Below are positions 6,992 to 26,949 of a stretch of 64,000 bases of DNA, piece after piece (within the stretch, counting starts at the first letter, position 1; the number at the start of each line of letters is the position of its first letter). The stretch covers positions 77,936-141,935 of the IMG/VR virus record IMGVR_UViG_3300021399_000111, one strand, 5' to 3'. Made by a program: the position numbers and the translations under genes. This stretch comes from a virus. Lineage: Duplodnaviria > Caudoviricetes. The notes below the pieces were generated by a model. It made no database searches and was not told where the DNA came from. It was given only the letters and a program-made list of their open reading frames with translations.

Positions 6992-7237
6992 TTAATCATT
7001 ATTTATTTTGAATTGATAAAAAAAGCTTCCAATCCAAGAAAGTGTTCCTGCAAGTAATGGAATCTGATTAAGGGCTATCGAGATATGAACTAAACTCAAT
7101 CCTTCAATAAGCACTTTACCTATTGTAATTTTAGCAATCCAGCCTACAAAATAACCAAACCAGAAGAAAAGAAATGGCTCAATTAAAAAGAATATAATGA
7201 AAAATATTAATACTTTATATAAATTATCTCTTTTCAT
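6992..7237 (-). CDS. Hypothetical membrane protein
   Basis: Hydrophobic; overlaps the upstream gene. Confidence 0.65.
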   Translation of the reverse strand: MKRDNLYKVLIFFIIFFLIEPFLFFWFGYFVGWIAKITIGKVLIEGLSLVHISIALNQIPLLAGTLSWIGSFFYQFKINND

Positions 7238-7781
7238 TTATTTTATTTTTTATCCTTTCAATAATATCATCAAGAGACCATGGAGTACAATTATTAGTAT
7301 CCATTTCACAATGAAAAATAAGTCCTTTATCCCAATCAGCAAATGGATCTTGTGTATGACTATGTCCACAAAGACTAATCATTTTTGCGGAAAGTGGTTT
7401 ATCATCATCAAAATTGGAAGTAATACAAGGATAATGTGAAAGATAAAAATGATATTTACCATATTGAAGAAATTTACCTTCACAAATTTCAACAACATTC
7501 CAACAATGATTATAGAGTTTCATTCTATTATCACCATCATGGTTTCCGCGGATAATATGAATATTGCCTTTAAGCTGCTTAATACAATATAGTCCTTCTA
7601 TATCATCATTAAGCATCATATCTCCAAGACAATAAATATCATCATCTGGATTTACAATATTATTCCAATTATGTATAATAGCATTATTCATTTCATATAC
7701 AGAATCAAATCCGCGTGGGCGCCAAAGGAACTCGCGAGCATGACAAAAATGTGGATCACTAGACATAAAAATTCTACCCAT
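7224..7781 (-). CDS. Calcineurin-like metallophosphoesterase
   Basis: SDPHFCH, LGD, GNHD, SHYP, GHSH motifs. Confidence 0.92.
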   Translation of the reverse strand: MGRIFMSSDPHFCHAREFLWRPRGFDSVYEMNNAIIHNWNNIVNPDDDIYCLGDMMLNDDIEGLYCIKQLKGNIHIIRGNHDGDNRMKLYNHCWNVVEICEGKFLQYGKYHFYLSHYPCITSNFDDDKPLSAKMISLCGHSHTQDPFADWDKGLIFHCEMDTNNCTPWSLDDIIERIKNKINEKR

Positions 7782-8310
7782 TTGAAGTCTCCTTATTATT
7801 TACTTTGAATAAATGCTTTCTTTCTTGATCTGTATCGTCTATAATGTGAATAATATCAAAACCCTCTTCGAAAGTTGGCATAGTGATTTGTGTTGCCATT
7901 CTTCGGATTACCTGCTCAGGAACATAAAATCGAGTGTTAATACGATTTTCATTTCTGTGAAGAGCCCTCCATACAGGAACTTTAAAAAATACAATTTCAA
8001 CACAACAATCTTTTAAAGACATTCCTAATGCACGAAGAAGTTTTGTACGGGATGCTTCATTAATATGAGTGGCATCCGCAATAACAGTTTGTCCATTATC
8101 AAGAGCTTTTTTAATTTCAGATACAAAAATATCATAAACTTGTTTTTCTTTATGAAAATAATCTTCTCCATCTTCGAGTAAAGAAAATCGAATTTGATCA
8201 CGAGAAACTAACTTATCAATATTTGCTGTTGGATGCTCATAAAGCTCATTTGCATAAGTAGATTTGCCCGAGCCGGGGATTCCACTCATCATAATCAATC
8301 TTTTGCTCAT
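7774..8310 (-). CDS. Polynucleotide kinase (AAA_33, Pnk-like)
   Basis: GIPGSGKST, SRD.IR, DATH...R, RN.NR...VPE.VI motifs. Confidence 0.88.
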   Translation of the reverse strand: MSKRLIMMSGIPGSGKSTYANELYEHPTANIDKLVSRDQIRFSLLEDGEDYFHKEKQVYDIFVSEIKKALDNGQTVIADATHINEASRTKLLRALGMSLKDCCVEIVFFKVPVWRALHRNENRINTRFYVPEQVIRRMATQITMPTFEEGFDIIHIIDDTDQERKHLFKVNNKETSNG

Positions 8311-8598
8311 TTAAATAACACCTTCTTTCTTCATTTTGTCTTTAAAGATACCATAAGGAAGGATTCTGTTTTGTTGTTCATCAAAATTATGGTGTTCAAA
8401 TTCAAATAGAAAATCATCATGGCTATATTTAGAACCAGGAATGCATTCGACATGATTAATTGTGTCATTGCAAGTTAAACACCAAAGTCGTTTAAGGTGC
8501 CCCGGTGCTCGTTCTTTTCCCTTAACTCTAACTATTGGCAAACCGCGGCTGCCGCATTTACAACAATAAAATTCATGATCAAGTATTAATGTTCCCAT
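8311..8598 (-). CDS. Zinc-ribbon hypothetical protein
   Basis: CxxC...GHLK.LWCxxC. Confidence 0.65.
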   Translation of the reverse strand: MGTLILDHEFYCCKCGSRGLPIVRVKGKERAPGHLKRLWCLTCNDTINHVECIPGSKYSHDDFLFEFEHHNFDEQQNRILPYGIFKDKMKKEGVI

Positions 8599-8676
8599 AA
8601 AATATCACTCCTTTATTTGATTTTCTATATATATTATAATATATTTTTTATAGAAAATCAAATAAAGAAAATTTAA

Positions 8677-8901
8677 TTAAACAAATTGATTTAAAAAAGT
8701 ATCAAATTCTATTGCATCACTAGGATATTCAACAGTAACACCTTGAGAAACATCAATGGACATAATTCCCATTAAACTTTTTCCATCAATTACATATTTA
8801 CCTCTTTTAAGAGTTACATCTCCTTCTACTCTTGTTGCTTCTTGGATAAAATTAGTTACATCAGCGAGTCCATAAATTTTAATATATTTAGTTGCTATCA
8901 T
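8677..8901 (-). CDS. HPr-family (PTS phosphocarrier-like) protein lacking the His15 equivalent
   Basis: IDGKSLMGIMSI (Ser46 region of HPr); 74 aa; no His in the sequence. Confidence 0.8.
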   Translation of the reverse strand: MIATKYIKIYGLADVTNFIQEATRVEGDVTLKRGKYVIDGKSLMGIMSIDVSQGVTVEYPSDAIEFDTFLNQFV

Positions 8902-8970
8902 AATATACCTCCTTTTTATACAACAACTAGAGCGAGTTTTTCTCGCTCTAGTTTATTAATTTTATTTAAA

Positions 8971-10155
8971 TTACTGGTGGTAACGAACTAGAAACTCATT
9001 AGATACTGCCTTGAAACTTCTAGTCCCATCTGGAGATCTAAATACGAGCCCTTCTCTCATACCTTCATCAATAACAGAAGTGCCAGTTGCAATTTTGAGT
9101 AACTCGTCAACAGTATCGGGAAGAATAAAATGCTCATTGACGATAGGAACCCAATGGATGCCATATCTTTCAAGGAACTCTTTTGCTTCAATAGAATTCC
9201 ATCTTCCATCCTGTGAAGTAATGAAATTAAAAGCACGGAAATCATGGTCAGCCATTCCATAGTATCTTCTCTGAATGCCCGCGCCGAAAGTTTCTCCCTG
9301 GATAGTTACCCATTTAAGAGATTTATTGTTTTTAAGAATATCCTTAAGTACATTCTCAATATTGTACTTTTTAGCCATTTCAAGATAAACATTAGTATCA
9401 TAGAAACAAGCTTTGTCAGGAGTATCAAAAACTACATTTCGAGAGCAAACATAGAAATCATACTTTCCAAACTTATCTCTTTTCATAGTGAAAGTAGTGC
9501 TTGTACCATCTATCTTCTCAGTTGCAATCCACTCAGACTTATCTTCAAGAATCCAAGTCATGTTCTGGACTCTCTCTTCGTCAGTCTTTACAACCCAAGC
9601 AGGCCAGTTTCGTACATCTCTCTTCTTACCAAAAAGAAGAATAAATACTCTCCGCAGAAACTTATTTCTCTTAATTACTTTACCCCATTTTCTTGCAATC
9701 TTAGGATGACGAGCAAGAGCTGCATTAATTCTAGCATCAGGGTTAGATTTAGCCTTTCTCTTATTATCCTCTGGCTCAGCATAGGTTACGCCAAGCTTTT
9801 CAGTAAGGAAGTCTCCTTCTACAAGAGAAGTAGCATCCCAACCAAAGTCCTTTGCGCTCATAAGAAGACCCTGAGAATAAAAACCAGGATTTTTTCCACC
9901 AAAAGTATACTTTTGAGTTTTTACATTACCATGTTTCTTTTCAAGAAATGCAAACTCAGGCTTAGTAGTGTCTACATGAGAGTCGATTTCAAAATAAATT
10001 GCAAGATCTCCAGCATTGAAAGTCCCTTTTCTAACCATGACCTTCCAACCGCCAACTACAGCAGCTTCGCAGTTGTCAGAACCAACAATAGGCTCAATAG
10101 CATCAATTTTTACTACATAAGCGAGTTCTCTTACATTAGTATTAGGATTAAGCAT
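8971..10155 (-). CDS. ATP-dependent RNA ligase (Rnl2/DRB0094-like) with N-terminal OB domain
   Basis: KTDEERVQN, TEKIDGTS (motif I), QGE, AFN, EGLVFR, FKAVS motifs. Confidence 0.9.
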   Translation of the reverse strand: MLNPNTNVRELAYVVKIDAIEPIVGSDNCEAAVVGGWKVMVRKGTFNAGDLAIYFEIDSHVDTTKPEFAFLEKKHGNVKTQKYTFGGKNPGFYSQGLLMSAKDFGWDATSLVEGDFLTEKLGVTYAEPEDNKRKAKSNPDARINAALARHPKIARKWGKVIKRNKFLRRVFILLFGKKRDVRNWPAWVVKTDEERVQNMTWILEDKSEWIATEKIDGTSTTFTMKRDKFGKYDFYVCSRNVVFDTPDKACFYDTNVYLEMAKKYNIENVLKDILKNNKSLKWVTIQGETFGAGIQRRYYGMADHDFRAFNFITSQDGRWNSIEAKEFLERYGIHWVPIVNEHFILPDTVDELLKIATGTSVIDEGMREGLVFRSPDGTRSFKAVSNEFLVRYHQ

Positions 10156-10278
10156 TTTTTACACCTCTTTTCTTTTCTCTTTCATTTTCTATAAATATTA
10201 TAACAAATATTTTAATAAAAATCAAATAAAATGCGGCGGTCCAGTCTTTGAGATCTCTTAAGCTAGCCCGCCGCATAA

Positions 10279-10599
10279 TTATTTCACAGGAACAATATTA
10301 TCTGAATCTGAAGGAATAATATCTTCACCAATTTGTCCATTGGGACCGAATTCCTTAATTCTTACAATAGTGTTCTTTCGCAATCCGCCAAAGGTATTGA
10401 TAAAAACTCCTAATGCAGCTTTAGCATCTACTGCAGTTACACCACGCGCTTTTGATAATCTAATTGTTGTTTTAGTATGAACAGGATCTCCATATTTTGC
10501 TTCTTTTGTTGGATACCATTCAAATTCATAACTTCTAAAAATTTGATTAGCCATTATTAATATCTTCCTCCATTGATTAATCAAAATATATTTCTTCAA
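10279..10599 (-). CDS. Hypothetical protein (true start probably MANQ at about 10554)
   Basis: GGAGG RBS precedes the internal ATG. Confidence 0.65.
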   Translation of the reverse strand: MKKYILINQWRKILIMANQIFRSYEFEWYPTKEAKYGDPVHTKTTIRLSKARGVTAVDAKAALGVFINTFGGLRKNTIVRIKEFGPNGQIGEDIIPSDSDNIVPVK

Positions 10600-11350
10600 A
10601 AGTGTCTAAGTCAAGAAGAGCGATACGATTAGATACAGCGGTACACATGTCTATACAAAACTTATGTCCATCACAGTAACGAATAATTGTAGGTTTAGGA
10701 TATGATGTATCATCTCCATATAACCAATTATGCGCTTTTTTTATATCTTCTTTTGTTTTAGGCGGTTGACCTTTATATCCGAATTCATATTCCAGAAATT
10801 GAACTGGAGTATGCCCATGAACTAAATAAATAGTATTAGGGTCTTCTTTTGTGAAAAAATCATCCTCTACCCAATTATCATAGAAATGACTTCTATCCCA
10901 AAGGGGGTCATGGGGACGGTGTGAAGCTATTAAAGAATGCCCGGCGTGTTCCAAAATTACAGTATGAGATCCTTTAACAGAATAATATACTAATTGTTTA
11001 GGTAATTTAGAAATAATATTAATATAATGATCTTGAATAAATCTAGGGAATTTAAGTAATTGATTTACTGTTAAATTCTCACTATCATCAAAAATTTCCC
11101 AGCGGTTAGGCTTGCGTCTATGGTTTATTTCTTCCACCATCATATCTTCGTGATTACCACAAAGAAAGTGTACTCTAGGATCATCTATTAATACATTAAA
11201 TAATTCTAAGCCATGCGGGCCTCGATCAACTGCATCACCAATAAAATAAAGTGTATCATCAGGCTGCAACCAATTTAAAACTTTTTTGCCTAATTCAAGT
11301 TGAGCATGCCAATCTGAACTTGCAAAAACTCTTCCCATAAAAAACACCAC
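10577..11350 (-). CDS. Ser/Thr protein phosphatase family metallophosphoesterase
   Basis: SDWH, GDAVDRG, GNHE, HAG, HGHTP motifs (PPP/lambda-phosphatase type). Confidence 0.88.
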   Translation of the reverse strand: MVFFMGRVFASSDWHAQLELGKKVLNWLQPDDTLYFIGDAVDRGPHGLELFNVLIDDPRVHFLCGNHEDMMVEEINHRRKPNRWEIFDDSENLTVNQLLKFPRFIQDHYINIISKLPKQLVYYSVKGSHTVILEHAGHSLIASHRPHDPLWDRSHFYDNWVEDDFFTKEDPNTIYLVHGHTPVQFLEYEFGYKGQPPKTKEDIKKAHNWLYGDDTSYPKPTIIRYCDGHKFCIDMCTAVSNRIALLDLDTFEEIYFD

Positions 11351-11523
11351 TTCCTTTCTTTTATAATTAATTATATCATAATTTTTTTAAGATTTCAAAT
11401 TTGCGTTTTTTAAAAAATTATGATATAATAAAATTAGACAGAAATGTATAATTTTTTTAGAGAGAAAATTATATATTATGAGAAGAAGGATTTTCTCAAT
11501 ATTTTACAAGGAGGTAAAAAAGT

Positions 11524-12897
11524 ATGGGTATGAAATTAACAGGACTTGTTTCTGGAATGGATACTGATGCAGTTATTAAACAAATGACATTAGCATACAC
11601 AGCAAAAAAAGATAAAGTCTGGAAAGCTAAAGAAACTTTAACTTATAAACAAGATGCTTGGAAAAATCTTAATAAAGAAGTTTATGATATGTTTACAAAA
11701 CTTTCTAAACTAAGATTAACTTCTACTTATCAAAGAAGTGAAGCCTCTTCATCAAATGAAAATATTGTAACGGTTGCGGGAGATAAAATTCAAGGGCAGC
11801 ATGATGTAACAGTGAAACAAATTGCTACTCAAACTTATCTTACTGGAAATATTGTTAATCAAAGTCAACCTATTAATGTTTCTGGTAATTTGACTGTTAC
11901 AATAGGCGGGAAAGAAAAAGAATTAAATATTACTCCAGATATGTCAATGGAACAAGTTGCTAGAAAATTAACCGAAGCGGGAATTATTGCTAATTTTGAT
12001 GAAAATAATGCAAGATTATTTTTAGCGTCAAAAACAACAGGAGCAAGTAGTGATTTTAATATAAGCGGAGATGCAAGCTTACTAGATGCCATAGGGCTAG
12101 GGTCTTCCGCAATAAAACAAGTTGGTAAAGATTCTATTATTAATGTAAATGGAGTGGATTTTGTATCTTCTTCAAATAAATTTAATATTAATAATATGAC
12201 AATTACCGCAAAATCATTAGGTTCTGCTACTGTTGGAATGAAAACAGATGAACATATTTTTGATACTGTTAAATCTTTTATTAAAGATTATAATGCTTTA
12301 ATTAAAAAAATTGATAGTTCTTATAATAACACTGCCGCAAAGGGATTATCTCCATTAACCGATGAAGAAAAAGATGCTTTAACAGATAAACAAATTGAAG
12401 AATGGGAAAGTAAATTAAAAGAGAGTGCTTTAAGCAAAGATGAAACTTTATCCTCTTTAAGTTCTTTGTTAAAAACTACAATGAGTTCTATTTCTGTTGA
12501 TGGAATTAATTTAACTTCTATGGGTATTACTCTTGGAGGATATTTCACAACAGAGAAAGATGAAAGAGGCGTTTATAATATTGATGAAGATAAACTCCAA
12601 AAAATAATTGCAGAGAACCCTGATAAAGTAATAAATTTTGTTACTAAACTTGCGGGAACCTTATATGATAAATTAAATACAAAGATGAAATCATCTTCTT
12701 TAAATAGCATTTATAGTATCTATAATGATAAGCAAATTAAAAATAATCTTGCAAATTATGATAAGAAAATTGCTGAATGGGAAGATAAGATTGTAAAAAT
12801 GGAAGATAAGTGGTATAAGCAATTTGCAAGAATGGAAAGCGTATTAAGTAAAACGCAGAGCCAAGCAAATTATTTATCAAATTTCTTTGGAATATAA
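11524..12897 (+). CDS. fliD: Flagellar filament cap protein FliD (HAP2)
   Basis: FliD_N (LTGLVSGMDT..VI..M; YKQ.AW..LN), GKDS.I.VNG...S.SN.F.IN, FliD_C (FIKDYNALI; PLTDEEK..LT..QIE.WE; KQFARME..LSK.QSQ..YL..F); strong AAGGAGG RBS. Confidence 0.93.
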   Translation: MGMKLTGLVSGMDTDAVIKQMTLAYTAKKDKVWKAKETLTYKQDAWKNLNKEVYDMFTKLSKLRLTSTYQRSEASSSNENIVTVAGDKIQGQHDVTVKQIATQTYLTGNIVNQSQPINVSGNLTVTIGGKEKELNITPDMSMEQVARKLTEAGIIANFDENNARLFLASKTTGASSDFNISGDASLLDAIGLGSSAIKQVGKDSIINVNGVDFVSSSNKFNINNMTITAKSLGSATVGMKTDEHIFDTVKSFIKDYNALIKKIDSSYNNTAAKGLSPLTDEEKDALTDKQIEEWESKLKESALSKDETLSSLSSLLKTTMSSISVDGINLTSMGITLGGYFTTEKDERGVYNIDEDKLQKIIAENPDKVINFVTKLAGTLYDKLNTKMKSSSLNSIYSIYNDKQIKNNLANYDKKIAEWEDKIVKMEDKWYKQFARMESVLSKTQSQANYLSNFFGI

Positions 12898-12931
12898 AAA
12901 AGGAGAAGGTTTTAAACCTTCCCCAATTTTT

Positions 12932-14383
12932 TTAGTATACAGCTAAATATCTCTCAGAAAGAAGAATATCAAGCATAAGTTCCATTCCATTCTTCCCTGT
13001 TGCCACCTGTTTAAAAATCAGCGGAGAAGATCCACTAACAAAAGAGACATTAGGGCCGAGATCAAGGAATGTATCATTACGAGCATCTACATTCCAATAA
13101 ACCAACCGAGGCATTTTAAGCCCAACTGCTTCCCACTCTTTCCGCATGATTTCCATTTCTGTGGCAGTTCTTTCCTCGCTCCAGCTTCCCACAGTCATAG
13201 CATTAATTTCCATATCGGAAATAACTACAACAGTATCAAGGCGGTCTTCAGGCTTTGCCGCAAGACTTGCTTGCTTAAGAAGTCTGAAGGTTTTTACAAG
13301 GTCTGTATCTTCACAGAGATTAGTGCGATAAATGCGGCGAACCTTATCTACAAAATCAACACCTTCAATTTTGATTAATTGAGGGCGAGAACTAAAACTA
13401 ATGTAGTGGTTCTTAAAAGGACCTCCAATGCGTTCCGCACAATACATGCCAAGCCCAATAGCCATATCAATAGGAGTTCCATGCATTGAACCAGAAGTAT
13501 CAACGACACAGATCATCTTACAAGGTTCGCCCTGTAAAACATCAATTTGATTCTCCCAATACTTTTCAAGCATTAATCTATCTGTATCACTGATATTGTA
13601 AGGGTAAGCCTTATGAACAATTTCATAAGGATAAAGCGCTCCAGCGTTCACCTTAGAATTCTTATCCTGCGCGAATGCTTCATATTTCTTTGCAATAATA
13701 TCTCTACGAGCAAAAGCATTGCGATAAATAAGACCCGCCTTAGAAGGGATTTTATCAAATTCAATTTCATCCCAACGATTTTCACTCATAAGTTTTTCAA
13801 TAATATTGATGCGAGAGCGCAGAGTAGAAAGTACTTTTCTATACTCTTTGTGAGTAAAACCAAGTGCTTCCCGCACGGCATTACCAGCCCTTTTAGTTTC
13901 TGCGGAAGATGCATTTTCAGAAGGAAGCCATTTTGCAAGTAAGCTAGGTGTCTTGCAATCTGCATCAAGAGCAAGCTGATGAGTAATAATCAGCATAGCC
14001 TCATTCCATACGGGAGTATCAAGAGTAGTATAAATTAAGTCATCCCATCTACCATATTCAGACACATTTTCAAGATTGCGGCGGGCTGCCTCAGGGAAAT
14101 TCTTGGCAAGCCAATTAAAGCACACACGAAAGAACCTACGCTCCCCCTGCCCGCCGCGAATATCACGAAGATAAAATAAACACTTTAAAGCAATAGATTC
14201 ATTCTCTTCAAAAGCATTTTTAAATGCAAGAATACAATCTTCATCAGAGCGTTTTCTATATGCTCCGCAAAGTGCAAACATATCCAAAATCGCACTTCTA
14301 GTTGTATTATGCTTCAATCCGCCATTCTCAGTATATCCAAAATTAGTAGTTTCAATTAAAGCATCAAGTAATGAATTCATCAT
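12932..14383 (-). CDS. DUF2828-type Ro60/TROVE-related protein with C-terminal vWA domain
   Basis: TENG, FYLRDIRGGQGER, YGRWDDL, LAKWLP; vWA MIDAS VVDTSGSM, ISDME, YWNV. Confidence 0.85.
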   Translation of the reverse strand: MMNSLLDALIETTNFGYTENGGLKHNTTRSAILDMFALCGAYRKRSDEDCILAFKNAFEENESIALKCLFYLRDIRGGQGERRFFRVCFNWLAKNFPEAARRNLENVSEYGRWDDLIYTTLDTPVWNEAMLIITHQLALDADCKTPSLLAKWLPSENASSAETKRAGNAVREALGFTHKEYRKVLSTLRSRINIIEKLMSENRWDEIEFDKIPSKAGLIYRNAFARRDIIAKKYEAFAQDKNSKVNAGALYPYEIVHKAYPYNISDTDRLMLEKYWENQIDVLQGEPCKMICVVDTSGSMHGTPIDMAIGLGMYCAERIGGPFKNHYISFSSRPQLIKIEGVDFVDKVRRIYRTNLCEDTDLVKTFRLLKQASLAAKPEDRLDTVVVISDMEINAMTVGSWSEERTATEMEIMRKEWEAVGLKMPRLVYWNVDARNDTFLDLGPNVSFVSGSSPLIFKQVATGKNGMELMLDILLSERYLAVY

Positions 14384-14680: not shown

Positions 14681-14753
14681 AGCCGCCAGAGGGACTTGAA
14701 CCCCCAACCCTTTCATTACAAGTGAAATGCTCTACCAATTGAGCCATGGCGGC
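14681..14753 (-). tRNA. tRNA-Thr(TGT)
   Basis: Cloverleaf; anticodon arm TTTCA-CTTGTAA-TGAAA. Confidence 0.95.
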
Positions 14754-14766
14754 AAATGGATTAGAC

Positions 14767-15066
14767 TTATTCAGTCTTTTCCGTTTTAGCAGACTTTTCC
14801 TCTGCCTTAGCTCGCTCAGCCTTAATCTTTTCAGCCTTTGCGATGAGAGCTTTATTAGTGCATCTTTTGTTATCTACGGCGTCAATAAGATGATCTTCCG
14901 CCATAAGACGCTCCTGATAAAGCTGTTCACTATGCTTTGTCATTTCTGGCACGGAAAGAGATTTCATACTCCGTACCATATTCTGAAATCTACGAAAAGT
15001 ATCCGCAGAAGGCATTACATGCTTTACATCATTTACTGTTGAAATTTTAACTTCATTCTTTGCCAT
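14767..15066 (-). CDS. Hypothetical protein with own promoter
   Basis: RBS and TTGATT..TATAAT promoter. Confidence 0.7.
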   Translation of the reverse strand: MAKNEVKISTVNDVKHVMPSADTFRRFQNMVRSMKSLSVPEMTKHSEQLYQERLMAEDHLIDAVDNKRCTNKALIAKAEKIKAERAKAEEKSAKTEKTE

Positions 15067-15171
15067 TTTTCTTTTCCTTTTTCTTTTGTTTCATTTTCTA
15101 TAAATATTATAACAAAAATTTTATTAAAAATCAACTTTATGTTACTACACTCCCCACAAGAGTATAAAGAA

Positions 15172-15522
15172 TGGAGATGACGGGAGTCGAACCCGTGTCT
15201 TGAAACCTTACTAATTATCAACCTTTTACGCAATAGTGTTTTTAAAGTGTTCTCTCACTTTTCGAGCTTTTCCTACTTCCACCACTTTATTTTGAGAAAA
15301 TAAAGAAAACAATGTGTTTTTTATTCATAAAATCAAGCATTGACCAAACACGAGGAATAACTTGAAGTTCCATTAAAGAACTCAAGCAGCTGCCTGAGCA
15401 AGTCTTCTAGGAAAGTTTACAATTTTCTTGTCGTTTAAATTTATAGGTTGGTTGCATAACGCGCATACCATTTCGTGCGAGTTAATAATATTCAAGCCCC
15501 AATCGATAGCCATTTCATCCCC
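15172..15522 (-). ncRNA. ssrA: tmRNA; tag peptide (A)DKKIVNFPRRLAQAAA* at 15432-15382
   Basis: 5' GGGGATG pairs with 3' CATCTCCA giving G3.U70; T-arm GGTTCGACTCC; resume codon after ATAAATTTAAAC; tag ends in AAA. Confidence 0.93.
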
Positions 15523-15673
15523 TTAACATCTCGGTTTGTCGATAACCGAAAACGCCAATGGTGTAGCTATATGCTCAAAGAACCTAGGCTCACTCTTTAA
15601 AAGTTAGATCTGCTCTACCCAAGCGACTTCCCATTGGATTAATCATTCTGCGGAAATTGCTAACTCCCGCATA

Positions 15674-15746
15674 GCAGCGGATACAGGAGTCGGACCTGTA
15701 CGACATGAGTCAAAGTCATGTGTCCTACCATTAGACTAATCCGCCA
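15674..15746 (-). tRNA. tRNA-Gln(TTG)
   Basis: CATGA-CTTTGAC-TCATG arm; T-loop TCCGACT. Confidence 0.9.
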
Positions 15747-15840
15747 TAAGGGCTTTAAAAAAATGTTCACGATTTCACGCGGATCTAGTTTACGCACCCC
15801 TGCCTTGTTCTAGAATTGACAGGTTTCTACTAGATCCGCA

Positions 15841-15915
15841 TCGGGGTAGCGGGATTCGAACCCACGACCTCGTGTACCCAAAACACGCGCTCTAGCCAAA
15901 CTGAGCCATACCCCG
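15841..15915 (-). tRNA. tRNA-Pro(TGG)
   Basis: CGGGGTA acceptor; CGTGT-TTTGGGT-ACACG. Confidence 0.95.
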
Positions 15916-16196
15916 AGATACTCTAAGTAGATATAATGTATCGCGACCCATCATTTATTTTAAGATTTGTAGCTCTCAAACCTCATTATATCTGAACTTA
16001 AAGTATAGAACAATTCATGCCGCATCTATCTGAAACTTGCCACGATATTTCCCTTTTGTAAGAGCTATAATATGCAAAAAGGAAAATAAAAAAGTTATTT
16101 ATTCTATTGCTATGCTTTTGCATTTATAAAAACAAATAACTTTCTTTATCTATAAATAATTATAACAAAAATTTTGAAAAATGTCAAAAATTTTAA

Positions 16197-16267
16197 CAGG
16201 CTCTGTAGGAATCGAACCCACATCTAAGGATTTGGAGTCTATTATGTTACCATTACACCAAGAGCCC
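16197..16267 (-). tRNA. tRNA-Trp(CCA), two mismatches in the anticodon stem
   Basis: ATAGA-CTCCAAA-TCCTT; intact D, T and acceptor arms. Confidence 0.85.
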
Positions 16268-16351
16268 ATAATTAACGCATATTTTATGCGTTAATTTATT
16301 TTTTATTGTATATATATTATAACAAATATTTTTTATAATGTCAAAAATTTT

Positions 16352-18712
16352 TTATGGACAATTATTATATAATCTAATATGGTAACCAGTATTAGTATAA
16401 CCATTTGTTATTGTTGTCCAAGTAATAGCGGTGCCTCTACCTACCATACGATTATCAGAATTTCTAAAAGGTGTTAAATCATTACAATAAATAGTAAACC
16501 AACCTAATCTTGAAGATTGTGTATTAAATATGTTTTCTAATGCAGATGGCCTGTTCAATCCATTTTTAAAGAAAAGATTACAGTTAAGATAAGAACTGCA
16601 GTTAGAAAACATATATTGTGTATTATATATATTATTTTGGATATACATATTTACTTGTCTTAAATTACTGCAATTACGAAACATATAAGCGGTATTGTTA
16701 ATAAAAGTGTCTTCTGGAATGTCGATTGGATAATTTAATTTTTTACATTGTGCAAATAATAATTGAGCATCTATTAATGTGACATTATTACCAAAAGTTA
16801 TGCTTGTATTAAAATTGTTACAATTATTAAACATCATTGCCGCATTATTTATATAGACATTATCAAATATAATTGGTTGATTAAAGGAAAGGCAATTATT
16901 AAATGCAATATTTGCATAGTTAATTATACAATTTGAGAAATTAACTGGAGCATTATAAATGCTACTTTGAAATAAAGCTGTTATACTACTTATTGTAGAA
17001 TTATAAAAATTAAAATTAAAATTTTTATTCAAAGTAATTAAAGACCCTTGAAAATTTGTATTAATTATATTTAAATTAGTAATGTATCCAGGGATTCTAA
17101 GATGTGTATATGTAAATAATGAATTACTAATATTAATCATTTTTAAATTATTACAATTATAAAACATATCAGTTACACCATCACTATGAGAATCAATATT
17201 AATATTTTCAATATTGATAGATATTAATTGATTGCAATTAGCAAACATATAATTAGGATACATTATATTTATATTATTTAAATTTAATTGTTGAATGTTA
17301 CTACAATTAGTAAACATACCTAGAGCATTTTGAATGTTTAAATTATTAATATCTATTTGAAATAATGAAGTGCAATTATTAAACATCCGAGCTGCTGAAG
17401 TAAAAGTGGTTTGATCAGCAAAATTTATTTGTTCTAATTTTGTGCATTGATTAAACATGTTTTCAGCAATTATTCTGGCTTTATTATTTAAAGTAAAATG
17501 ACTTAAGTTAGAACAACCACTAAACATTTCATGCATATCAATTAATTCATTTTCTTCTTCATTTATAATAAAATTAATATTTGCATTTAAATTATTGCAA
17601 TAGTCAAACATATAAGAGTAGTTAGTCCCTGTCATTTTAATATTTATATCGGTATTAAAATTAGAAAAACTAAACATACTACCCCCATCATTTATTGATA
17701 ATATGTTTATTTCTTCTCCAAGATCAGTAAAGCAATGAATATTTCCATTAAAATTATAACAACCATAAAACATACTATATGCAAAAATATTCGTTTCATT
17801 GGATATTCCATAAAAATTAATAGGACTGTTTAATGAATGACAACTAGCAAACATACCATTGCAAAATAATGCATTTACTTTAGTCGTAGTACCCTCCATT
17901 TTAATTATATTAATTGGTGAATTTAAATTACTACAATCTACAAACATATTTTCACCATAAAAATGTAAATCTGTTGCTACAGATGGTAAAAATACGAAAT
18001 TACTATTAACTGTTGTAAGTCGATTGCAATAACCAAACATGCCATTATACCATCCACCAGATGATATATAGTTTTTTGTACTAAATTTAGAAAGACTAGA
18101 TCCATAAAACATATTTTCACAACTTGATTCATAAGAATTCATTAGCATATTTTGATTACAATAAAAATCAGTTATTTCTTGACTTTGGAAAGACCCTACT
18201 AAATTATTAAAACAAATATCATCGATTGCATAGAAATTAATTGATTTAAACATATAATATGATGGTCGATAGGTTGTTGCAAAAGAATAGGCTAAATTTA
18301 TACCATCTTTATCAAATGCTTGTGATGCATTCGCAGTATGATTATTACCAAAATAAAATTTTTTACTATAAAGATAATGATTAAACATAACATAACTTAA
18401 ATCTGTTATATTGTTTCCAATATAAATACTTCCGCCATTCTCCCCAAATATGAATGGCATTAAAGAAACACTTTCAGTTGACATTCCAGGGACTGCTGTC
18501 ACATTATATTGATACTCAACATAATCAGAAATACTTGGTAAAGTATTATTCATTAAACAAAAATAATCTCGTTCAGTATTTAATAATGTATTTTGAATAA
18601 ATATTGAATTGATAGCATCTGGAAATTCATAAGGAGTATAATAATTATCTACATTTAATCTATCTCTAATCGCATTTGCTATATCGCTAAAAATTGATTG
18701 TATATTTTGCAT
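16352..18712 (-). CDS. DUF285/BspA-like repeat surface or receptor-binding protein
   Basis: Many 'MF.NC..L/FN..I' repeats of about 25-30 aa; N-terminal DIANAIR..P..F..AI motif. Confidence 0.75.
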   Translation of the reverse strand: MQNIQSIFSDIANAIRDRLNVDNYYTPYEFPDAINSIFIQNTLLNTERDYFCLMNNTLPSISDYVEYQYNVTAVPGMSTESVSLMPFIFGENGGSIYIGNNITDLSYVMFNHYLYSKKFYFGNNHTANASQAFDKDGINLAYSFATTYRPSYYMFKSINFYAIDDICFNNLVGSFQSQEITDFYCNQNMLMNSYESSCENMFYGSSLSKFSTKNYISSGGWYNGMFGYCNRLTTVNSNFVFLPSVATDLHFYGENMFVDCSNLNSPINIIKMEGTTTKVNALFCNGMFASCHSLNSPINFYGISNETNIFAYSMFYGCYNFNGNIHCFTDLGEEINILSINDGGSMFSFSNFNTDINIKMTGTNYSYMFDYCNNLNANINFIINEEENELIDMHEMFSGCSNLSHFTLNNKARIIAENMFNQCTKLEQINFADQTTFTSAARMFNNCTSLFQIDINNLNIQNALGMFTNCSNIQQLNLNNINIMYPNYMFANCNQLISINIENINIDSHSDGVTDMFYNCNNLKMINISNSLFTYTHLRIPGYITNLNIINTNFQGSLITLNKNFNFNFYNSTISSITALFQSSIYNAPVNFSNCIINYANIAFNNCLSFNQPIIFDNVYINNAAMMFNNCNNFNTSITFGNNVTLIDAQLLFAQCKKLNYPIDIPEDTFINNTAYMFRNCSNLRQVNMYIQNNIYNTQYMFSNCSSYLNCNLFFKNGLNRPSALENIFNTQSSRLGWFTIYCNDLTPFRNSDNRMVGRGTAITWTTITNGYTNTGYHIRLYNNCP

Positions 18713-18724
18713 TATTTTACCTCC

Positions 18725-20953
18725 TTATATATTATTATATACATAAATATTACCATAGTAGACACCATATTCAAAAGGAGTCCATGAAATATAGGTTCCA
18801 GTAATAGAAGTATAATAGCCCCCTTGAGATTGCACATTAATAATTTTGTTAAAACAATTATTGACATCATTAACATGAATATTAATTCTTTTTGAAGAAT
18901 CATATCCCGCAATAAAACTATCCACTCCTATAAGATTAGGGCAATAATTTAAATAAATATCTGATGGAATATTGGATTTCATATTAGCAAACATCCCATT
19001 TATCATTTGAAGATTTTCTGCCATAGCAAAATTAAAAGGAGATGTTAAAATTAAATTAGAGCAATTATAAAAAGCCCAAGATAAATCTATACAGTTATTA
19101 TCTGAAACTCTGTTCATAGGCCCTGATTGTAAATTAGTACAATTATAAAAAATTCTACTAGCATTTTGATATTTTGACCATGGGAAAGGTTGATTTAACA
19201 TGATTAAATTATTACATTCTTCAAACATGCTAACTGCATTTTTAAAATGATTTCCATATGTTGATAAAAAACGAAAATTAAAATATTGCAAGTTAGTGCA
19301 ATAATGGAACATATTATTGCCAGTAGTTATGTAACATTCTTCATAAGGATTTAATATTACACTTTGTAATTTAGTGCAGTATTCAAAAGCTGATTCTGCA
19401 TTTCCACTAATCTGACAATTAATTTCTAATATTTGATTAAAATTTTCGCACCCATAAAACATCCATGACATATTTCTAATTATAGCATTTGCATTATTAG
19501 AAGGAAAAATAATAGGTTGATTTAAATTATAACAATTTATAAACATATTATTCATATAAAGATTTACTGGGTATCTTCTTTTGTACGAATTATAATAATT
19601 TGAATGTAATATTGACATTGGACTATTATAATTTTCACAATTGCAAAACATAGAGGAAAAATCTATAAAATCTCCTTTAGATGTAGAATTATTGCATCTA
19701 ATGTAATCAACATTAATAGATGAATTAAAATTATAACAATTTTCAAACATATTTGAAAAATTAAAACTATTACCAAAAAATATAGAATAAGTATAATCAT
19801 CAGTATTTTCTGCATCAAACATATTTATCCATTGTATTGTTCTTAAATTCTGACAATTTCTAAATAGCTCAGTATAATTTCTTGTAAAACAATTATTAAA
19901 AACTACTGTAGTATTTAAATTATTACACTCAGCAAAAACTCCTATTAATGAATTAACAATTATATTTTCAGATGTAAAATATAAAGGCTGATTTAAATTA
20001 TAACAGCCTGCAAACATATAATCCATTCTAATTGGATAGTATGTTTGAGCAGATGTTGTTGCTGTTCTGGTATGAATATTAAAAGTAATTGGAGAATTTA
20101 AATTTTCACAATGAGAAAACATTCCTCTCATACTTCCCGCATAGTCTCCTTGTGGTTCAAAATTATCCGTATAATATGAATTTCCAGAAAGAATCATGTT
20201 ATTTGGTATATATAAAGGTTGATTAAAACTATAACATTCTGCAAACATATTTTCAGCATTTCCTGTAGCAAAATTTTGAAAATTTATTGGTTGATTGAAA
20301 GAAATGCATCGACGAAAACTATTAGAAGTATTACTAAAAATATATTCATTTAAATAAGATGGAAGCTGTACTATATCAGGGAAAATTAAAGGTTGATTAA
20401 AACTATATTGCATTCCTACTGAATGCAAAAATAAACCATATAAATTTTTAAGATGTGGTGTATTTTTAAAGTTTAATGGATAATTGTATGTTTCTTGCAT
20501 TCGAAACATATTTGATATGCTAACTAAATTATTACAGTTTTGACTAAAATATACTGGACAAGAATTATAAGTATCCTCCCAATATAAATTATGGACTTCA
20601 CTTATTTTTGGTCCAATAGTAATATAATCTACTCCTGCGTTTGCGGGAATCGTATAACCATTTATAATAACATCATTACATTCATTGATTATAGCATCAT
20701 GCATTTTATATAATACTTTTTCAGATGATGGTTCAAAAGATTGTATTTGCATTAATCCTTCTGTGGGATATTCCATTTCAACAATACGCGGAGATCCAGA
20801 AAATGGCACTATTGAATTTATCATAGGAGCCATTTGTTCTGGTGTAAAATTTGTATTTATACTTAAAGTTTCTCTTAAAGCTACAGCTACATTATGAAAA
20901 ATTTGAGGTATATTTATATTAAGAGGATTTTCCCAATTTGGTATTATAGACAT
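18725..20953 (-). CDS. DUF285/BspA-like repeat protein (paralogue)
   Basis: MF..CY.FNQP repeats; same N-terminal motif. Confidence 0.75.
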   Translation of the reverse strand: MSIIPNWENPLNINIPQIFHNVAVALRETLSINTNFTPEQMAPMINSIVPFSGSPRIVEMEYPTEGLMQIQSFEPSSEKVLYKMHDAIINECNDVIINGYTIPANAGVDYITIGPKISEVHNLYWEDTYNSCPVYFSQNCNNLVSISNMFRMQETYNYPLNFKNTPHLKNLYGLFLHSVGMQYSFNQPLIFPDIVQLPSYLNEYIFSNTSNSFRRCISFNQPINFQNFATGNAENMFAECYSFNQPLYIPNNMILSGNSYYTDNFEPQGDYAGSMRGMFSHCENLNSPITFNIHTRTATTSAQTYYPIRMDYMFAGCYNLNQPLYFTSENIIVNSLIGVFAECNNLNTTVVFNNCFTRNYTELFRNCQNLRTIQWINMFDAENTDDYTYSIFFGNSFNFSNMFENCYNFNSSINVDYIRCNNSTSKGDFIDFSSMFCNCENYNSPMSILHSNYYNSYKRRYPVNLYMNNMFINCYNLNQPIIFPSNNANAIIRNMSWMFYGCENFNQILEINCQISGNAESAFEYCTKLQSVILNPYEECYITTGNNMFHYCTNLQYFNFRFLSTYGNHFKNAVSMFEECNNLIMLNQPFPWSKYQNASRIFYNCTNLQSGPMNRVSDNNCIDLSWAFYNCSNLILTSPFNFAMAENLQMINGMFANMKSNIPSDIYLNYCPNLIGVDSFIAGYDSSKRINIHVNDVNNCFNKIINVQSQGGYYTSITGTYISWTPFEYGVYYGNIYVYNNI

Positions 20954-21018
20954 ATTAAAACCTCCTTTTCTTTCTATATATAAAAAGAAGGGTAAGATTT
21001 TATCTTACCCTTCCTAAT

Positions 21019-22140
21019 TTATTCAAATAAACAATCAGGACCACTTACTCCACATTTTATATCATTATCTAATATTTCTTGCGGGAGACGGCTTCTAATA
21101 TCTTTAAATTCTTCATCGCTGCCATAAGGTTCGTTTTTTACCTTTTCCATAAATTCAAAAAAAGTAACCTGTGGAATAATATTAATTAAATCTTGAGCCT
21201 TTCCCGCTAACTGCATTGTATAAAGTCCTTTGAGAATATCATCACTAATTTGACTTTCAATTTCTTTATAACATTCATTATAAAATTTCTTTGCATTAAA
21301 GAAATTTTGTTCTGCAAAAACAGGCTTCCGCTCAAGGCATTCAATATATGTAAAATAATGACCTACCATCATTTCTGCGGTAAATCTCGCAATAGAACCA
21401 TTAAAAGGATTTTTCTTTCTACAAAATTTAATAGCATTAATAGATGCAATAGTAGCTCCCCATTGACAAAGATCAAAATTATATTGCGGCATTCCATCTT
21501 CATCTTGCCCAATTCTAGTAATAGAATGCTCAGAGCCAATCCGCCATAAATAAACAGGAGTATCTTGAATCACATTGATCATTAAAGGGCTCCCTTCAAT
21601 GGTCATGCGGATCTTCCAATTTAGCTCACCATCCTCCATAGCGCGCAATTGAGTGAAACCAATTCCATTCTTGCGAAGAAAAGCTACATTGTAGAGTCTC
21701 CCGAATACCCATGGGTGTCCCACATCGCCGCGAGGAATAAACCGAACACCTTGAGGATTATTTTGCACTTCTTGGCAAAAAGGAGCTTGAACTTCAATAA
21801 CTTCAGGTTTATTTACTCCTCTGAGTAAAAATTCAATAGAAAATGGAGTAAAGAATACATCATCCGCATCAATAAAAGTAATCCAATCTGTCTTGCATGC
21901 ATCTAAACATCTTTGTCTTGCAAGCCCAGGGCCTGTATTTTTTTCACATTCAAGAATTGTAATATCTAACTGCGGGAATGCTTTTTTCACAAAATCATAA
22001 TCATCATTTGGGTTGTCTTTCGCAATAATAACTGAAATCATATCTTTTACAGTTTGAATATTAATTGAAGAAAGACAATCTATAATATGAGCTTCCGCTT
22101 TAAAAGCGGGAATACCAACAGTTACTTTCTTTTCATTCAT
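21019..22140 (-). CDS. Glycosyltransferase family 2
   Basis: VGIPAF, NTGPG.ARQ, FIDADD (DxD), MED motifs. Confidence 0.9.
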   Translation of the reverse strand: MNEKKVTVGIPAFKAEAHIIDCLSSINIQTVKDMISVIIAKDNPNDDYDFVKKAFPQLDITILECEKNTGPGLARQRCLDACKTDWITFIDADDVFFTPFSIEFLLRGVNKPEVIEVQAPFCQEVQNNPQGVRFIPRGDVGHPWVFGRLYNVAFLRKNGIGFTQLRAMEDGELNWKIRMTIEGSPLMINVIQDTPVYLWRIGSEHSITRIGQDEDGMPQYNFDLCQWGATIASINAIKFCRKKNPFNGSIARFTAEMMVGHYFTYIECLERKPVFAEQNFFNAKKFYNECYKEIESQISDDILKGLYTMQLAGKAQDLINIIPQVTFFEFMEKVKNEPYGSDEEFKDIRSRLPQEILDNDIKCGVSGPDCLFE

Positions 22141-22393
22141 ATAAATATTTCTCCTTGTGTCTCATTTATATCTCTATATAATAATTATACTATAAATTTT
22201 TTTAGATGTCAAGAGATATTTATTTCTAAATATAATAAAAAAAAAGGAGGATAGATTAAACAAATCTATCCTCCAATTTTTAATATTAAATTATAAAAAT
22301 TATGGCGCAGTAGGAGCTGTCATAGCAGTTCGCATAACGGGTGGAGTTGCTTTCTAGGGGGCAGATATTCTTCTGCCCCCTATTTCTTTATTA

Positions 22394-22603
22394 TTAATCA
22401 TTGCTTGTGTCTATTTTTACATTGATGTTATAAAGATTTGTAATTTCTAATTTTAAAACTTCATCATCTAAAAGAAAATCATCTAAGCAATCATACCCTG
22501 GAAGTCCAAATGTAATTAATAATAAATCATTTTCACTATAGAGATTAACTGTAATTACTTTCTCTGAAGCAATTACTTTAAGTAATCCTTCTAATGTAAT
22601 CAT
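22394..22603 (-). CDS. Hypothetical protein (possible tail-fibre assembly factor)
   Basis: RBS; last gene of the fibre operon. Confidence 0.55.
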   Translation of the reverse strand: MITLEGLLKVIASEKVITVNLYSENDLLLITFGLPGYDCLDDFLLDDEVLKLEITNLYNINVKIDTSND

Positions 22604-22633
22604 GATGTGTTACCTCTCTTAATTATTCTATTT

Positions 22634-24598
22634 TTATTCTTTTGTTTCAAGAGCTTCTATTCTTTTAGTAAGATTATTTATCTCCTGTTGTTGCATTTGA
22701 CAAAGCTTGATCAAGTACGGTGTAAATTGTTCATAAGCAACAGATCTAGGAACAAGTTTATTCTTATCTTCTTCACTAGGTTCATGTATAATTAAATCTG
22801 GTAATATTTTTTCTACTTCTTCTGCAATTACACCAACTTTATCATTTAATCTAGTATTAGATACTTGATCATCATTATAATCAAAAGTAATTGTACGGAT
22901 ATCTAAGATTTTCTTTGCTCTTTCTTCAGTTAAATCTTCTATATTATGTTTATATCTTCTGGATGATGTACCTGTGCTCCAAATAACAGTAGAACCAATG
23001 GCATAAACGAGATTTTTGTCGGTTTGCATAGTAAGAGTGCACTTCGTATTAGGAACGCCAAATGCTACCATAGTTGATTTATCCTCACTACCTATAGAGA
23101 CAGCATAAGCGCGCCCTTCATTATCCCTTTGGACAATCGTAGCTCCAGAAGAAGTGCCTTGAGTGGCATTTAAAAAGGCTGCAGATTTAAGACCCTTAAC
23201 ACTTACATCTGCAGATGTACCGTTAGTATTAACTGAGATAGTACCATTAGCACTACCTGTACCAATACTTCTAACTCCACTATTACTAAATTTAGTACCA
23301 GAAAGAGATATTCCATCACCCGCAGAATAAGTAGTATCAGTAGTAGGGGGTGTGTATCCTAATGCACCAGTCACATTAGCCTTGGTTAAACTAAATGTAG
23401 TACCATTAAGTGTGATATTGCTACCCGCAGAATAGGTAGTATCAGTAGTGGGAGGAGTATATCCTAGTGCTCCAGTTACATTGGCTTTAGTCAAGCTAAA
23501 TGTTGTTCCATTAAGTGTTATGTTACTACCAGCAGAATAAGTGGTGTTAGTGGTAGGTGGTGTGTATCCTAATGCACCAGTTACATTGGCTTTTGTTAAG
23601 CTAAATGTAGTACCGTTAAGTGTTATATTATTTCCTGCGGAATAAGTTGTGTTATTGTCAGGAGGAACAACCCATTTTCCGTCTTGCCTTAAATACTTAG
23701 TAGTAGTAGTTTCATTAGGTAATTGTGGTGCTAAGCCATTTGCTGTTTTAGATACTACTCCTGGCTTATTAGAAAGATCACTATATGATCCACTAAATGC
23801 TACCGTTTTGAGATCAGCAAAATATTTCTTAATTTTACCAAATAATGTAGCTATAGTTTCTCCGCTATCAATATTAGTTCTACTAGCGGCTGCTGTAAAT
23901 GTAGGAGTTTGATTATTAGTAGTTACATTAGGTACATTACCTAATCCAACATCACTAGCAGTAGTTCCATGAGGGTTAGTCCCCGCGGGATGCGTATATA
24001 CATTAGTTTCAGTTCCATTAATAATTACATTACCATTTGTAGTACTAGCTTCTACTTTAGTAGCATCAGTTCGAGCATGAGCAGATTGTGAGTGATCATA
24101 AGCGGTTTTACCTCTATCACCGCGGTAAGCGGTAGTAGAAGTTTCACCTAAAGCAAGATCAGTTCCAACAATTGCATAAGTAGTGCCACCCCAACGATAA
24201 GTTACATTATTTGGAATATCAATATAAATTTTACCATTTTCTGGAGTTATTTCTTTTGTTTTAGCAGAATCTTCATAAAATTTTCCGCTTGCTTTATCAA
24301 AATAACCTTCAATTACATCATCCACATAAGAAGGAAGTTGTGCGGTAGGCACATGACCATATTCATCTAATGTGGCGATACCTGGAATTGGGTTACTAGG
24401 ATCTGTTTTATCAGTAGGTTTCCCAATCATCTTAAAGAATTTATTTTCTACCTCAGTAAAATATTTTTTTATTTTTCCAAGAATTGTAGAATGTGATTCT
24501 TTGCTATTTATATTTGCCCTTGTGGAGGCTTCAGTGAACGTAGGATTGAGAAGTTCCCTAGTATCACTACTATCATAAATATTATCTTGTGCTCTCAT
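22634..24598 (-). CDS. Tail fibre protein with C-terminal intramolecular chaperone (peptidase S74)
   Basis: GLGNV.N repeat; SSRRYKHNI autocleavage motif, G.IAEEV, terminal coiled coil. Confidence 0.88.
   Translation of the reverse strand: MRAQDNIYDSSDTRELLNPTFTEASTRANINSKESHSTILGKIKKYFTEVENKFFKMIGKPTDKTDPSNPIPGIATLDEYGHVPTAQLPSYVDDVIEGYFDKASGKFYEDSAKTKEITPENGKIYIDIPNNVTYRWGGTTYAIVGTDLALGETSTTAYRGDRGKTAYDHSQSAHARTDATKVEASTTNGNVIINGTETNVYTHPAGTNPHGTTASDVGLGNVPNVTTNNQTPTFTAAASRTNIDSGETIATLFGKIKKYFADLKTVAFSGSYSDLSNKPGVVSKTANGLAPQLPNETTTTKYLRQDGKWVVPPDNNTTYSAGNNITLNGTTFSLTKANVTGALGYTPPTTNTTYSAGSNITLNGTTFSLTKANVTGALGYTPPTTDTTYSAGSNITLNGTTFSLTKANVTGALGYTPPTTDTTYSAGDGISLSGTKFSNSGVRSIGTGSANGTISVNTNGTSADVSVKGLKSAAFLNATQGTSSGATIVQRDNEGRAYAVSIGSEDKSTMVAFGVPNTKCTLTMQTDKNLVYAIGSTVIWSTGTSSRRYKHNIEDLTEERAKKILDIRTITFDYNDDQVSNTRLNDKVGVIAEEVEKILPDLIIHEPSEEDKNKLVPRSVAYEQFTPYLIKLCQMQQQEINNLTKRIEALETKE
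23321..23650 (-). repeat. Three tandem 105-bp (35-aa) repeats in the tail fibre
   Basis: TTYSAG(S/N)NITLNGTTFSLTKANVTGALGYTPPTT(D/N) x3, diverged at synonymous sites. Confidence 0.95.
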
Positions 24599-24692
24599 TC
24601 CTTCGAGACCTCCTCTTTTATTTAAAAAATCAAGACAAAAGGGAGGCGGAAATGCCTCCCTTTATGGATGCGAGTGACCAAGGGCCGCCGCA

Positions 24693-24911: not shown

Positions 24912-24932
24912 TTTTATTTAGTCCTCCTAAAA

Positions 24933-26357: not shown

Positions 26358-26372
26358 TTCGCTTTACCTCCT

Positions 26373-26930: not shown

Positions 26931-26949
26931 TTATCTGTTTCCTCCTTTA

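Follow-up and report, generated by a model that had tools for sequence, protein, structure and literature searches.

A divergent FliD-type flagellar cap gene inherited together with a flagellin gene in a large Caudoviricetes phage

Results

An intact fliD gene in a large phage genome

The stretch of DNA analysed here, which we call the window, comprises the 64,000 nucleotides at bases 77936-141935 of a 141,935-bp virus genome of the Caudoviricetes (IMG/VR record IMGVR_UViG_3300021399_000111), which carries direct terminal repeats and is estimated to be 100% complete, and it contains a gene for the flagellar filament cap protein FliD (HAP2). This fliD coding sequence occupies positions 11524-12897 of the plus strand, encodes 457 amino acids, and was assigned on the basis of Pfam domains, fold and the ratio of nonsynonymous to synonymous substitution rates (dN/dS). 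Both terminal domain profiles are matched end to end, FliD_N (PF02465) at residues 10-103 (2.7e-17, 63.6 bits versus a cut-off of 24.8) and FliD_C (PF07195) at residues 201-445 (8.7e-29, 101 bits versus a cut-off of 25.4), which bears out an initial annotation of the window that had described an intact gene with both domains. That annotation had placed the gene start at 11434; however, the frame contains stop codons before the ATG at 11524, so the true start lies 90 nucleotides downstream, and positions 11434-11523 are promoter and leader, not coding sequence. A FliS-like match inside fliD scored 19.8 bits, below the cut-off, and was judged to be coiled-coil noise; FliD has no PHROG family.

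Almost every gene of the window lies on the minus strand, and fliD is indeed the only real plus-strand gene in its first ~46 kb, as had been noticed before. The G+C content of fliD is 29%, the same as that of its neighbours, and the earlier count of its CG dinucleotides, 8 of 15 within GCGG or CCGC, proved exact and reflects a bias seen genome-wide: across the genome the observed/expected (o/e) ratio is 4.0 for GCGG and 3.5 for CCGC, while CG overall is depleted (o/e 0.68). Neither a tyrosine integrase nor a serine-recombinase domain was detected in the phage genome, and judging by its gene content the lineage apparently does not integrate.

We next considered the fold. An AlphaFold2 model built on 28 relatives has a mean predicted local distance difference test (pLDDT) score of 87 and displays the long terminal D0 helices (residues 14-63 and 402-455) as well as D1 and D2-D3, with strands at residues 70-243 forming a beta-rich middle and a disordered N-terminus at residues 1-10, where pLDDT falls below 50. 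The top Foldseek matches of this model, 6sih (E value 8.5e-20), 9gnz, 9m67 and 5h5v, are FliD caps and cap-filament complexes, and a profile of the clade described below matched Salmonella FliD in the PDB at 1.3e-14. Since the protein is collinear with a 486-amino-acid bacterial FliD (38% identity) with only small gaps, no domain is missing, and conservation within the phage clade is even over all domains, the D0 termini included. The context of a bacterial late flagellar operon (flaG-fliD-fliS/fliT) is absent, the neighbours of fliD being a phosphatase, an RNA ligase, a DUF2828 protein and tRNAs; this bears on the gene neighbourhood, not on family membership. Thus, by sequence and modelled fold, the product is a member of the FliD family that stands on a separate, phage-only branch, and as such it would be exported via a flagellar type III system and form an oligomeric cap at the filament tip.

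Phage FliDs form a clade of their own

A database search with FliD returned a graded series of proteins of 452-463 amino acids, from 86% down to 44% identity, below which only bacterial FliDs of 486-797 amino acids appeared, assigned to Lachnospiraceae, Roseburia or Clostridiales where named. In a maximum-likelihood tree, 27 of the short FliDs (452-463 amino acids) and one further protein formed a clade apart from 92 bacterial FliDs with a Shimodaira-Hasegawa-like approximate likelihood ratio test (SH-aLRT) value of 100, so that the phage-specific clade for which the initial annotation had proposed a phylogenetic search does exist. No bacterial FliD exceeds about 40-44% identity to the phage protein; likewise, a scan of 185,579 prokaryote species, one genome each, found no FliD above 40% identity, and its best matches were all from Lachnospiraceae.

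All clade members on long contigs have phage gene neighbours. For the 86% relative, located on a 145-kb contig, the gene order is the same as in the window and recurs on two independent contigs, and relatives at 54-61% identity carry fliD at the same site, adjoining the phosphatase gene. In other relatives its neighbours are a DNA polymerase III alpha gene interrupted by homing endonucleases, the genes for PHP, PolIIIalpha, NrdD and dUTPase, or RNA-repair genes. In IMG/VR, fliD also occurs in two more genomes (146 and 122 kb); the IMG/VR scans were pattern-based, the single-sequence scan yielding 0 loci and the alignment-based scan 2, and these counts are lower bounds. Because the same gene order is found in independent contigs and both fliD junctions are bridged by contigs from sheep, bovine and goat gut runs, a chimeric assembly is excluded. 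Comparison with the 86% relative gave a dN/dS of 0.16 at a dS of 0.49; this closest pair alone was used, since dS is about 1 or more for the distant relatives and makes their ratios unreliable. On this sequence comparison fliD is under purifying selection. Together, the phage-only clade reaching down to 44% identity, the phage-like composition, the phage promoter described below and the dN/dS value uphold the earlier suggestion that the gene is a long-term resident of the phage.

Some GenBank records labelled as phage also gave FliD matches. One of them, MT836129.1 (‘UNVERIFIED: Bacteriophage sp.’, 13 kb), was rejected as a source of phage FliD because it is a bacterial flagellar operon, its genes encoding FlgN, two FlgK-like proteins, flagellin, FliW, FlaG, FliD, FliS and FlgN, followed by pyruvate formate-lyase; none of MT836129, MT836588 and short Listeria records was counted as phage FliD. 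We found no published description of a phage-encoded FliD, in a literature search whose coverage was incomplete and which is therefore no proof of absence.

fliD is inherited together with a flagellin gene

The initial annotation had reported no other flagellar genes nearby and had treated fliD as a lone flagellar gene. The former holds within the window but not for the genome, as a flagellin gene encoding 270 amino acids with Flagellin_N and Flagellin_C domains lies on the minus strand ~34 kb upstream of fliD, outside the window (G000:C1:54999-55811), just upstream of the DNA polymerase III alpha gene. The latter has to be revised altogether, for fliD turned out to be one half of a co-inherited flagellin and FliD pair. 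The flagellin gene is present in both IMG/VR relatives that carry fliD, and two metagenomic contigs carry fliC and fliD either side by side or separated by 4 kb. A 99%-identical flagellin occurs on a contig of 145,163 bases, and the contig of the 86% FliD relative is equally 145,163 bases long. In two relatives the flagellin gene lies ~4 kb from fliD on the minus strand (L010:4145-6221 and L016:5837-6655), in the first of them adjoining holin and amidase lysis genes, and in the 122-kb relative the flagellin-fliD pair sits between the pieces of a DNA polymerase III alpha gene broken by LAGLIDADG homing-endonuclease genes (L002:4438-14739).

The reverse pattern was seen in phages that share the DUF2828 gene found beside fliD. 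Among the best 80 of the 178 IMG/VR relatives of this gene, a single locus had fliD within 5 kb, and it was on an already identified fliD contig; FliD and flagellin were both absent from the whole genome in 10 of 10 DUF2828-sharing related phages, six of which are at least 90% complete. Hence both members of the pair were present in 3 of 3 records, to which 3 metagenomic contigs with the pair can be added, and both absent in 10 of 10 related genomes, with none discordant (Fisher p = 0.0035, a value that overstates independence, as the counts are small and the phages related). From these sequences we conclude that flagellin and fliD are inherited together, though their position varies between relatives.

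The two proteins differ in their distance from bacterial homologues. The phage flagellin is 77-83% identical to many flagellins of 268-274 amino acids, mostly from metagenomic contigs, and 71-76% identical to those of genomes whose FliD is just 34-39% identical to the phage FliD. Naming a host genus by its flagellin was tried and given up, because the 71-76% matches fall in several Lachnospiraceae genera and single out none. When the open reading frames of 85 bacterial fliD loci were compared with those of the phage, only fliC, fliD and, weakly, a GT2 glycosyltransferase matched; the last is the GT2 gene of the phage tail-fibre region, whose matches are glycosyltransferases in three bacterial flagellar loci. 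Neither CsrA nor FliW was found in the phage genome.

Promoter and terminator of fliD

Upstream of fliD lies a sigma-A-type promoter at 11401-11429 on the plus strand, consisting of a -35 element TTGCGT (11401-11406), a 17-nucleotide spacer and a TG-extended -10 element TGATATAAT (11421-11429). This arrangement, TTGCGT-17 nucleotides-TATAAT with the TG extension, sits inside the sequence AAAAATTATGATATAAT, the 12-base core of which, TTATGATATAAT, is found at 11 genomic places, each with a TTGAC-like -35 element ~17 nucleotides upstream; of these copies, one serves the neighbouring operon as its divergent promoter and a second lies ahead of a topoisomerase gene. The initial annotation had regarded the sequence upstream of fliD as an unusual motif held in common with the tail-fibre operon. 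In fact it is a promoter of ordinary sigma-A type that stands mostly before non-structural genes, and the tail-fibre/GT2 operon has merely a looser variant of it. The phage flagellin gene has a promoter of the same general form (TTGACA-17 nucleotides-TATAAT). No sigma-28-type box was present near fliD, the single match in the window being far from the gene and at chance level. From its sequence the fliD promoter is probably active; fliD had no cover in one RNA run, a result that carries no weight either way. Downstream, between the convergent fliD and DUF2828 genes, a bidirectional intrinsic terminator was found at 12902-12924, with a T-run after a 10-bp stem for the minus strand and after a 7-bp stem for the plus strand.

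The fliD leader carries a flagellin-type two-site design

Between promoter and start codon the plus strand contains a leader hairpin at 11479-11498, with an 8-bp stem and AGGA (11487-11490) in its loop, which is a candidate CsrA site 1. The Shine-Dalgarno sequence AAGGAGG at 11508-11514, 9 nucleotides before the ATG, is a candidate site 2, its GGA following the first by 22 nucleotides. The phage flagellin leader is built in the same way, CCAC-AAGGAT-GTGG followed by CAAGGAGG, with a GGA-to-GGA spacing of likewise 22 nucleotides, and the CAAGGAGG context is conserved across phage fliD, phage fliC and Lachnospiraceae flagellin leaders. Of the 173 genes crudely called in this genome, only fliC and fliD, plus one weak case, combine a GGA-loop hairpin with an AAGGAG ribosome-binding site.

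Conservation of the hairpin was then assessed across relatives. All 5 phage fliC leaders and 9 of 10 phage fliD leaders contain it, the remaining fliD leader having a 4-bp version, and its stem sequences differ considerably in divergent members. In an alignment of 14 phage fliD and fliC leaders, paired cells made up 92%, whereas shuffling gave 63% and slid controls about 50%, and double-sided stem changes numbered 28 versus 8.2 expected, the observed values being reached in 0 of 500 shuffles. By contrast, only 1 of 74 bacterial fliD leaders showed the design, and that a weak case (p = 3e-10 versus phage fliD). The two-site design recurs in the flagellin leaders of four Lachnospiraceae genomes, and adjacent fliW-csrA genes occur in 5 of 5 genomes of this candidate host family.

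CsrA recognises GGA in hairpin loops (PMC13443453, PMC4894983). In Bacillus subtilis it occludes the ribosome site of the flagellin mRNA, and FliW, freed on flagellin export, inhibits CsrA, so that secretion switches on translation (PMC6529632). The arrangement of the fliD leader suggests that it is a two-site CsrA target of this kind.

Discussion

A probable two-gene filament kit

We consider it probable, on the strength of these sequence comparisons, that fliD and the 270-amino-acid flagellin gene constitute a two-gene filament kit of the phage, whose products would be exported via the host flagellum and whose synthesis would be gated by host CsrA-FliW. FliD and flagellin are the most distal exported flagellar parts, and both are needed for filament growth on an existing hook and junction. 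In this model, host sigma-A RNA polymerase would transcribe fliC and fliD from the phage promoters, and transcription from such promoters would make the pair independent of the host late flagellar sigma factor. Because both mRNAs would bear the Firmicute flagellin-type two-site leader, with one GGA in a hairpin loop and one in the ribosome-binding site, host CsrA would block their translation unless FliW is free, that is, during flagellin export. The phage proteins would then exit through the existing flagellar type III export channel of the host, FliD would cap the tip of a hook-junction or of a broken filament, and the phage flagellin would polymerise beneath it; a chaperoning role of the FliD cap has been described (PMC5072837, PMC8533109). 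As a result, host filaments may be kept, regrown or replaced during infection, with motility sustained or the filament or tip surface changed. The flagellin-type leader on fliD would tie cap synthesis to a state in which export is active and cytoplasmic flagellin is low, which is the state to be expected of an uncapped or broken filament. The phage might profit from sustained motility or chemotaxis, from a surface altered to counter other phages, or from a shift in recognition by the animal.

Several points weigh against this two-gene model. The role of the leader hairpin might rather be to stabilise the mRNA or to serve some factor other than CsrA. FliS, FliT/FlgN-type chaperones, FlaG and FlgK/FlgL were not found in the phage genome, so that host chaperones would have to serve a phage FliD whose identity to known bacterial FliDs does not exceed 40%. 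The host, which we infer to be a member of the ruminant-gut Lachnospiraceae, is placed there solely by the nearest bacterial homologues, and the co-occurrence counts given above are small and come from related phages.

Relation to known systems

The cellular counterpart of the phage protein is the FliD of Lachnospiraceae, encoded in flaG-fliD-fliS-flagellin loci, which resembles it in the two Pfam domains, the predicted D0-D1-D2-D3 architecture and full-length collinearity. The bacterial proteins are, however, at most 40-44% identical, fall outside the fully supported phage clade and are longer (486-797 versus 452-463 amino acids). Moreover, the phage gene has neither flaG nor fliS alongside, is preceded by a sigma-A-type promoter and carries the two-site GGA leader, whereas bacterial fliD is without that leader.

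The closest precedent among phages is FRphi, the Flagellin Remodeling prophage of Enterobacter, which encodes a flagellin, fliC_P, together with an RNA-guided repressor, TldR; working flagella are built with this flagellin in place of the host's, to the benefit of motility, immune evasion and gut colonisation (10.1101/2023.11.30.569447; PMC13418256). Both phages encode an exposed filament component, flagellin included. FRphi supplies flagellin only, FliD being nowhere mentioned in its Nature Microbiology paper (PMC13418256), while the phage described here adds the cap gene. FRphi, a temperate siphovirus whose host is Gram-negative, uses a host sigma-28 promoter and silences host fliC by TldR, whereas the present phage has sigma-A-type promoters, a CsrA-type leader control and no detected integrase or recombinase. 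A search for a TnpB/TldR-like protein in this phage gave nothing better than a 13-bit match, below threshold, to the TnpB zinc-ribbon family, and did not extend to guide RNAs.

In its leaders the phage follows the design of the Hag-FliW-CsrA switch of Bacillus subtilis, with one GGA in a hairpin loop and another in the ribosome-binding site about 20 nucleotides apart (PMC6529632). The described target of that switch is the flagellin mRNA, whereas the phage has the design on fliD too, for which bacteria gave a single weak case among 74 leaders, and the phage supplies the targets only, without CsrA or FliW.

A wider parallel is offered by the auxiliary host-function genes of lytic phages. The psbA gene of cyanophages is such a case, a viral copy of a high-turnover host protein that keeps a function going after host transcription falls, and the phage fliD and fliC are likewise virus-borne copies of high-turnover host structural proteins. 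The difference is that psbA belongs to metabolism, whereas fliD and fliC would serve motility and organelle assembly and would need export via a host secretion machine.

Alternative explanations

Of the other explanations, the one that retains most weight, though we regard it as unlikely, is that the phage cap, alone or together with the phage flagellin, serves to block or exclude: it would alter or stop filament growth and so turn the infected cell, or debris from it, into a poor receptor, resulting in superinfection exclusion of flagellum-binding phages or in a lack of progeny re-adsorption. Such a role would suit a FliD that has diverged so strongly from all bacterial FliDs (at most 40-44% identity) and that evolves faster than flagellin between close phages (86% versus 99% identity), and exclusion of flagellotropic phages was proposed as one benefit of remodelling in the discussion of FRphi (10.1101/2023.11.30.569447). 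It sits less well with the equal conservation of all FliD domains, the filament-inserting D0 termini included, and with co-inheritance with a flagellin so host-like (71-83% identical to bacterial flagellins), which fits assembly better. Nor is there any sign that these phages use flagella as receptors; FRphi itself enters through FhuA, not the flagellum (PMC13418256). The initial annotation had suggested that FliD might alter or block filament growth; altering it is plausible, but the pairing with a host-like flagellin points to building rather than blocking.

Distinctly less probable is a regulatory decoy, in which leaders or proteins would titrate host CsrA, FliW or FliS and thereby reprogramme the CsrA regulon or flagellin homeostasis, with assembly being secondary. 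Two transcripts with strong promoters and two GGA sites each could act in this way, given that CsrA dimers and hag transcripts are near 1:1 in Bacillus subtilis and that extra transcripts could titrate CsrA (PMC6529632). However, an RNA decoy needs no 457 intact codons under purifying selection over the whole protein, and a complete FliD fold would be unnecessary for it.

The FliD of some pathogens has been described as an adhesin. A virion component, with FliD decorating tail or head and binding mucus, glycans or flagellar tips, is in our view as improbable as the decoy or slightly more so, even with fliD only 3.5 kb from the tail-fibre region at 16352-32487. Running on the opposite strand to the structural genes, fliD is bounded by a promoter and a terminator of its own; topoisomerase and other non-structural genes share its promoter type, and in relatives fliD adjoins DNA polymerase III, NrdD or RNA-repair genes; a flagellin-type translational leader and co-inheritance with flagellin likewise speak against a virion role, as does the lack of a PHROG family. 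Thus the adhesin reading, which the initial annotation had raised, is now disfavoured, being the alternative most weakened by promoter class, leader, mobile non-structural context and flagellin co-inheritance.

Finally, it is highly improbable that fliD is a functionless passenger recently captured from a host or an assembly artefact, for which we found no support beyond the existence of such artefacts among GenBank ‘phage’ records that proved bacterial, and against which stand the same gene order in independent assemblies, the junctions bridged in three other gut metagenomes, the deep phage-only clade, the dN/dS of 0.16, and a composition and CG context that match the phage.

Implications of the proposed filament kit

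Returning to the two-gene filament kit, we tentatively put forward a broader claim: large, apparently non-integrating phages of ruminant-gut Lachnospiraceae may have domesticated both distal filament proteins as a unit, on housekeeping-type promoters and with the cap gene given a CsrA/FliW-responsive leader unseen in the bacterial fliD genes examined, so as to regrow or re-surface flagella on existing basal bodies only during active export. If true, this would amount to a virus-run ‘auxiliary motility’ system and to a second, different case of phage flagellar remodelling, the sole earlier demonstration being one prophage system that supplies flagellin only. New here would be that the cap gene is supplied too, that there is apparently no integration, and that control is translational rather than RNA-guided and transcriptional; through the fliD leader, CsrA-FliW control would come to cover the synthesis of the cap as well as that of flagellin. 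Such a system would bear on viral steering of motility, colonisation and flagellin exposure in abundant gut Firmicutes, and fliC and fliD would provide a clean marker pair for finding such phages.

Other features of the phage genome

The window is AT-rich, with a G+C content of 24-43% per 2-kb bin. Around fliD, the minus strand carries an RNA-repair-like cluster at 7224-14383, whose members are a metallophosphatase, an AAA_33/KTI12-type kinase, an RNA ligase (PHA02142 OB fold and RNA_ligase), a NinI-like phosphatase and the DUF2828/DUF7788 protein. The last of these, directly beside fliD, is phrog_850, labelled ‘RNA-binding protein’, and its 178 IMG/VR relatives are in large phages. On the same strand, the part of the tail-fibre region at 16352-24598 encodes two large DUF285/BspA-type leucine-rich-repeat proteins, the GT2 glycosyltransferase and an S74-chaperone fibre with a CBM5/12 module.

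Encoded outside the window on the minus strand (L015:3885-7889), the replicative DNA polymerase III alpha of the phage is 1334 amino acids long. Among isolates, the proteins closest to it are YorL of SPbeta-like Bacillus phages (40% identity), a hint that this group of gut phages may descend remotely from an SPbeta-like ancestor.

The minus strand of the window also carries a transfer-messenger RNA gene at 15172-15522, with the tag peptide DKKIVNFPRRLAQAAA, and 26 tRNA-like genes in groups at 14681-16268 and 32958-40228, one of which, at 33098-33170, has a four-base anticodon (ggaa) according to ARAGORN. In the genome as a whole the tetranucleotide ACGT is nearly absent, with 32 occurrences seen versus 435 expected (o/e 0.07), a depletion that, from the sequence, looks like restriction-site avoidance.

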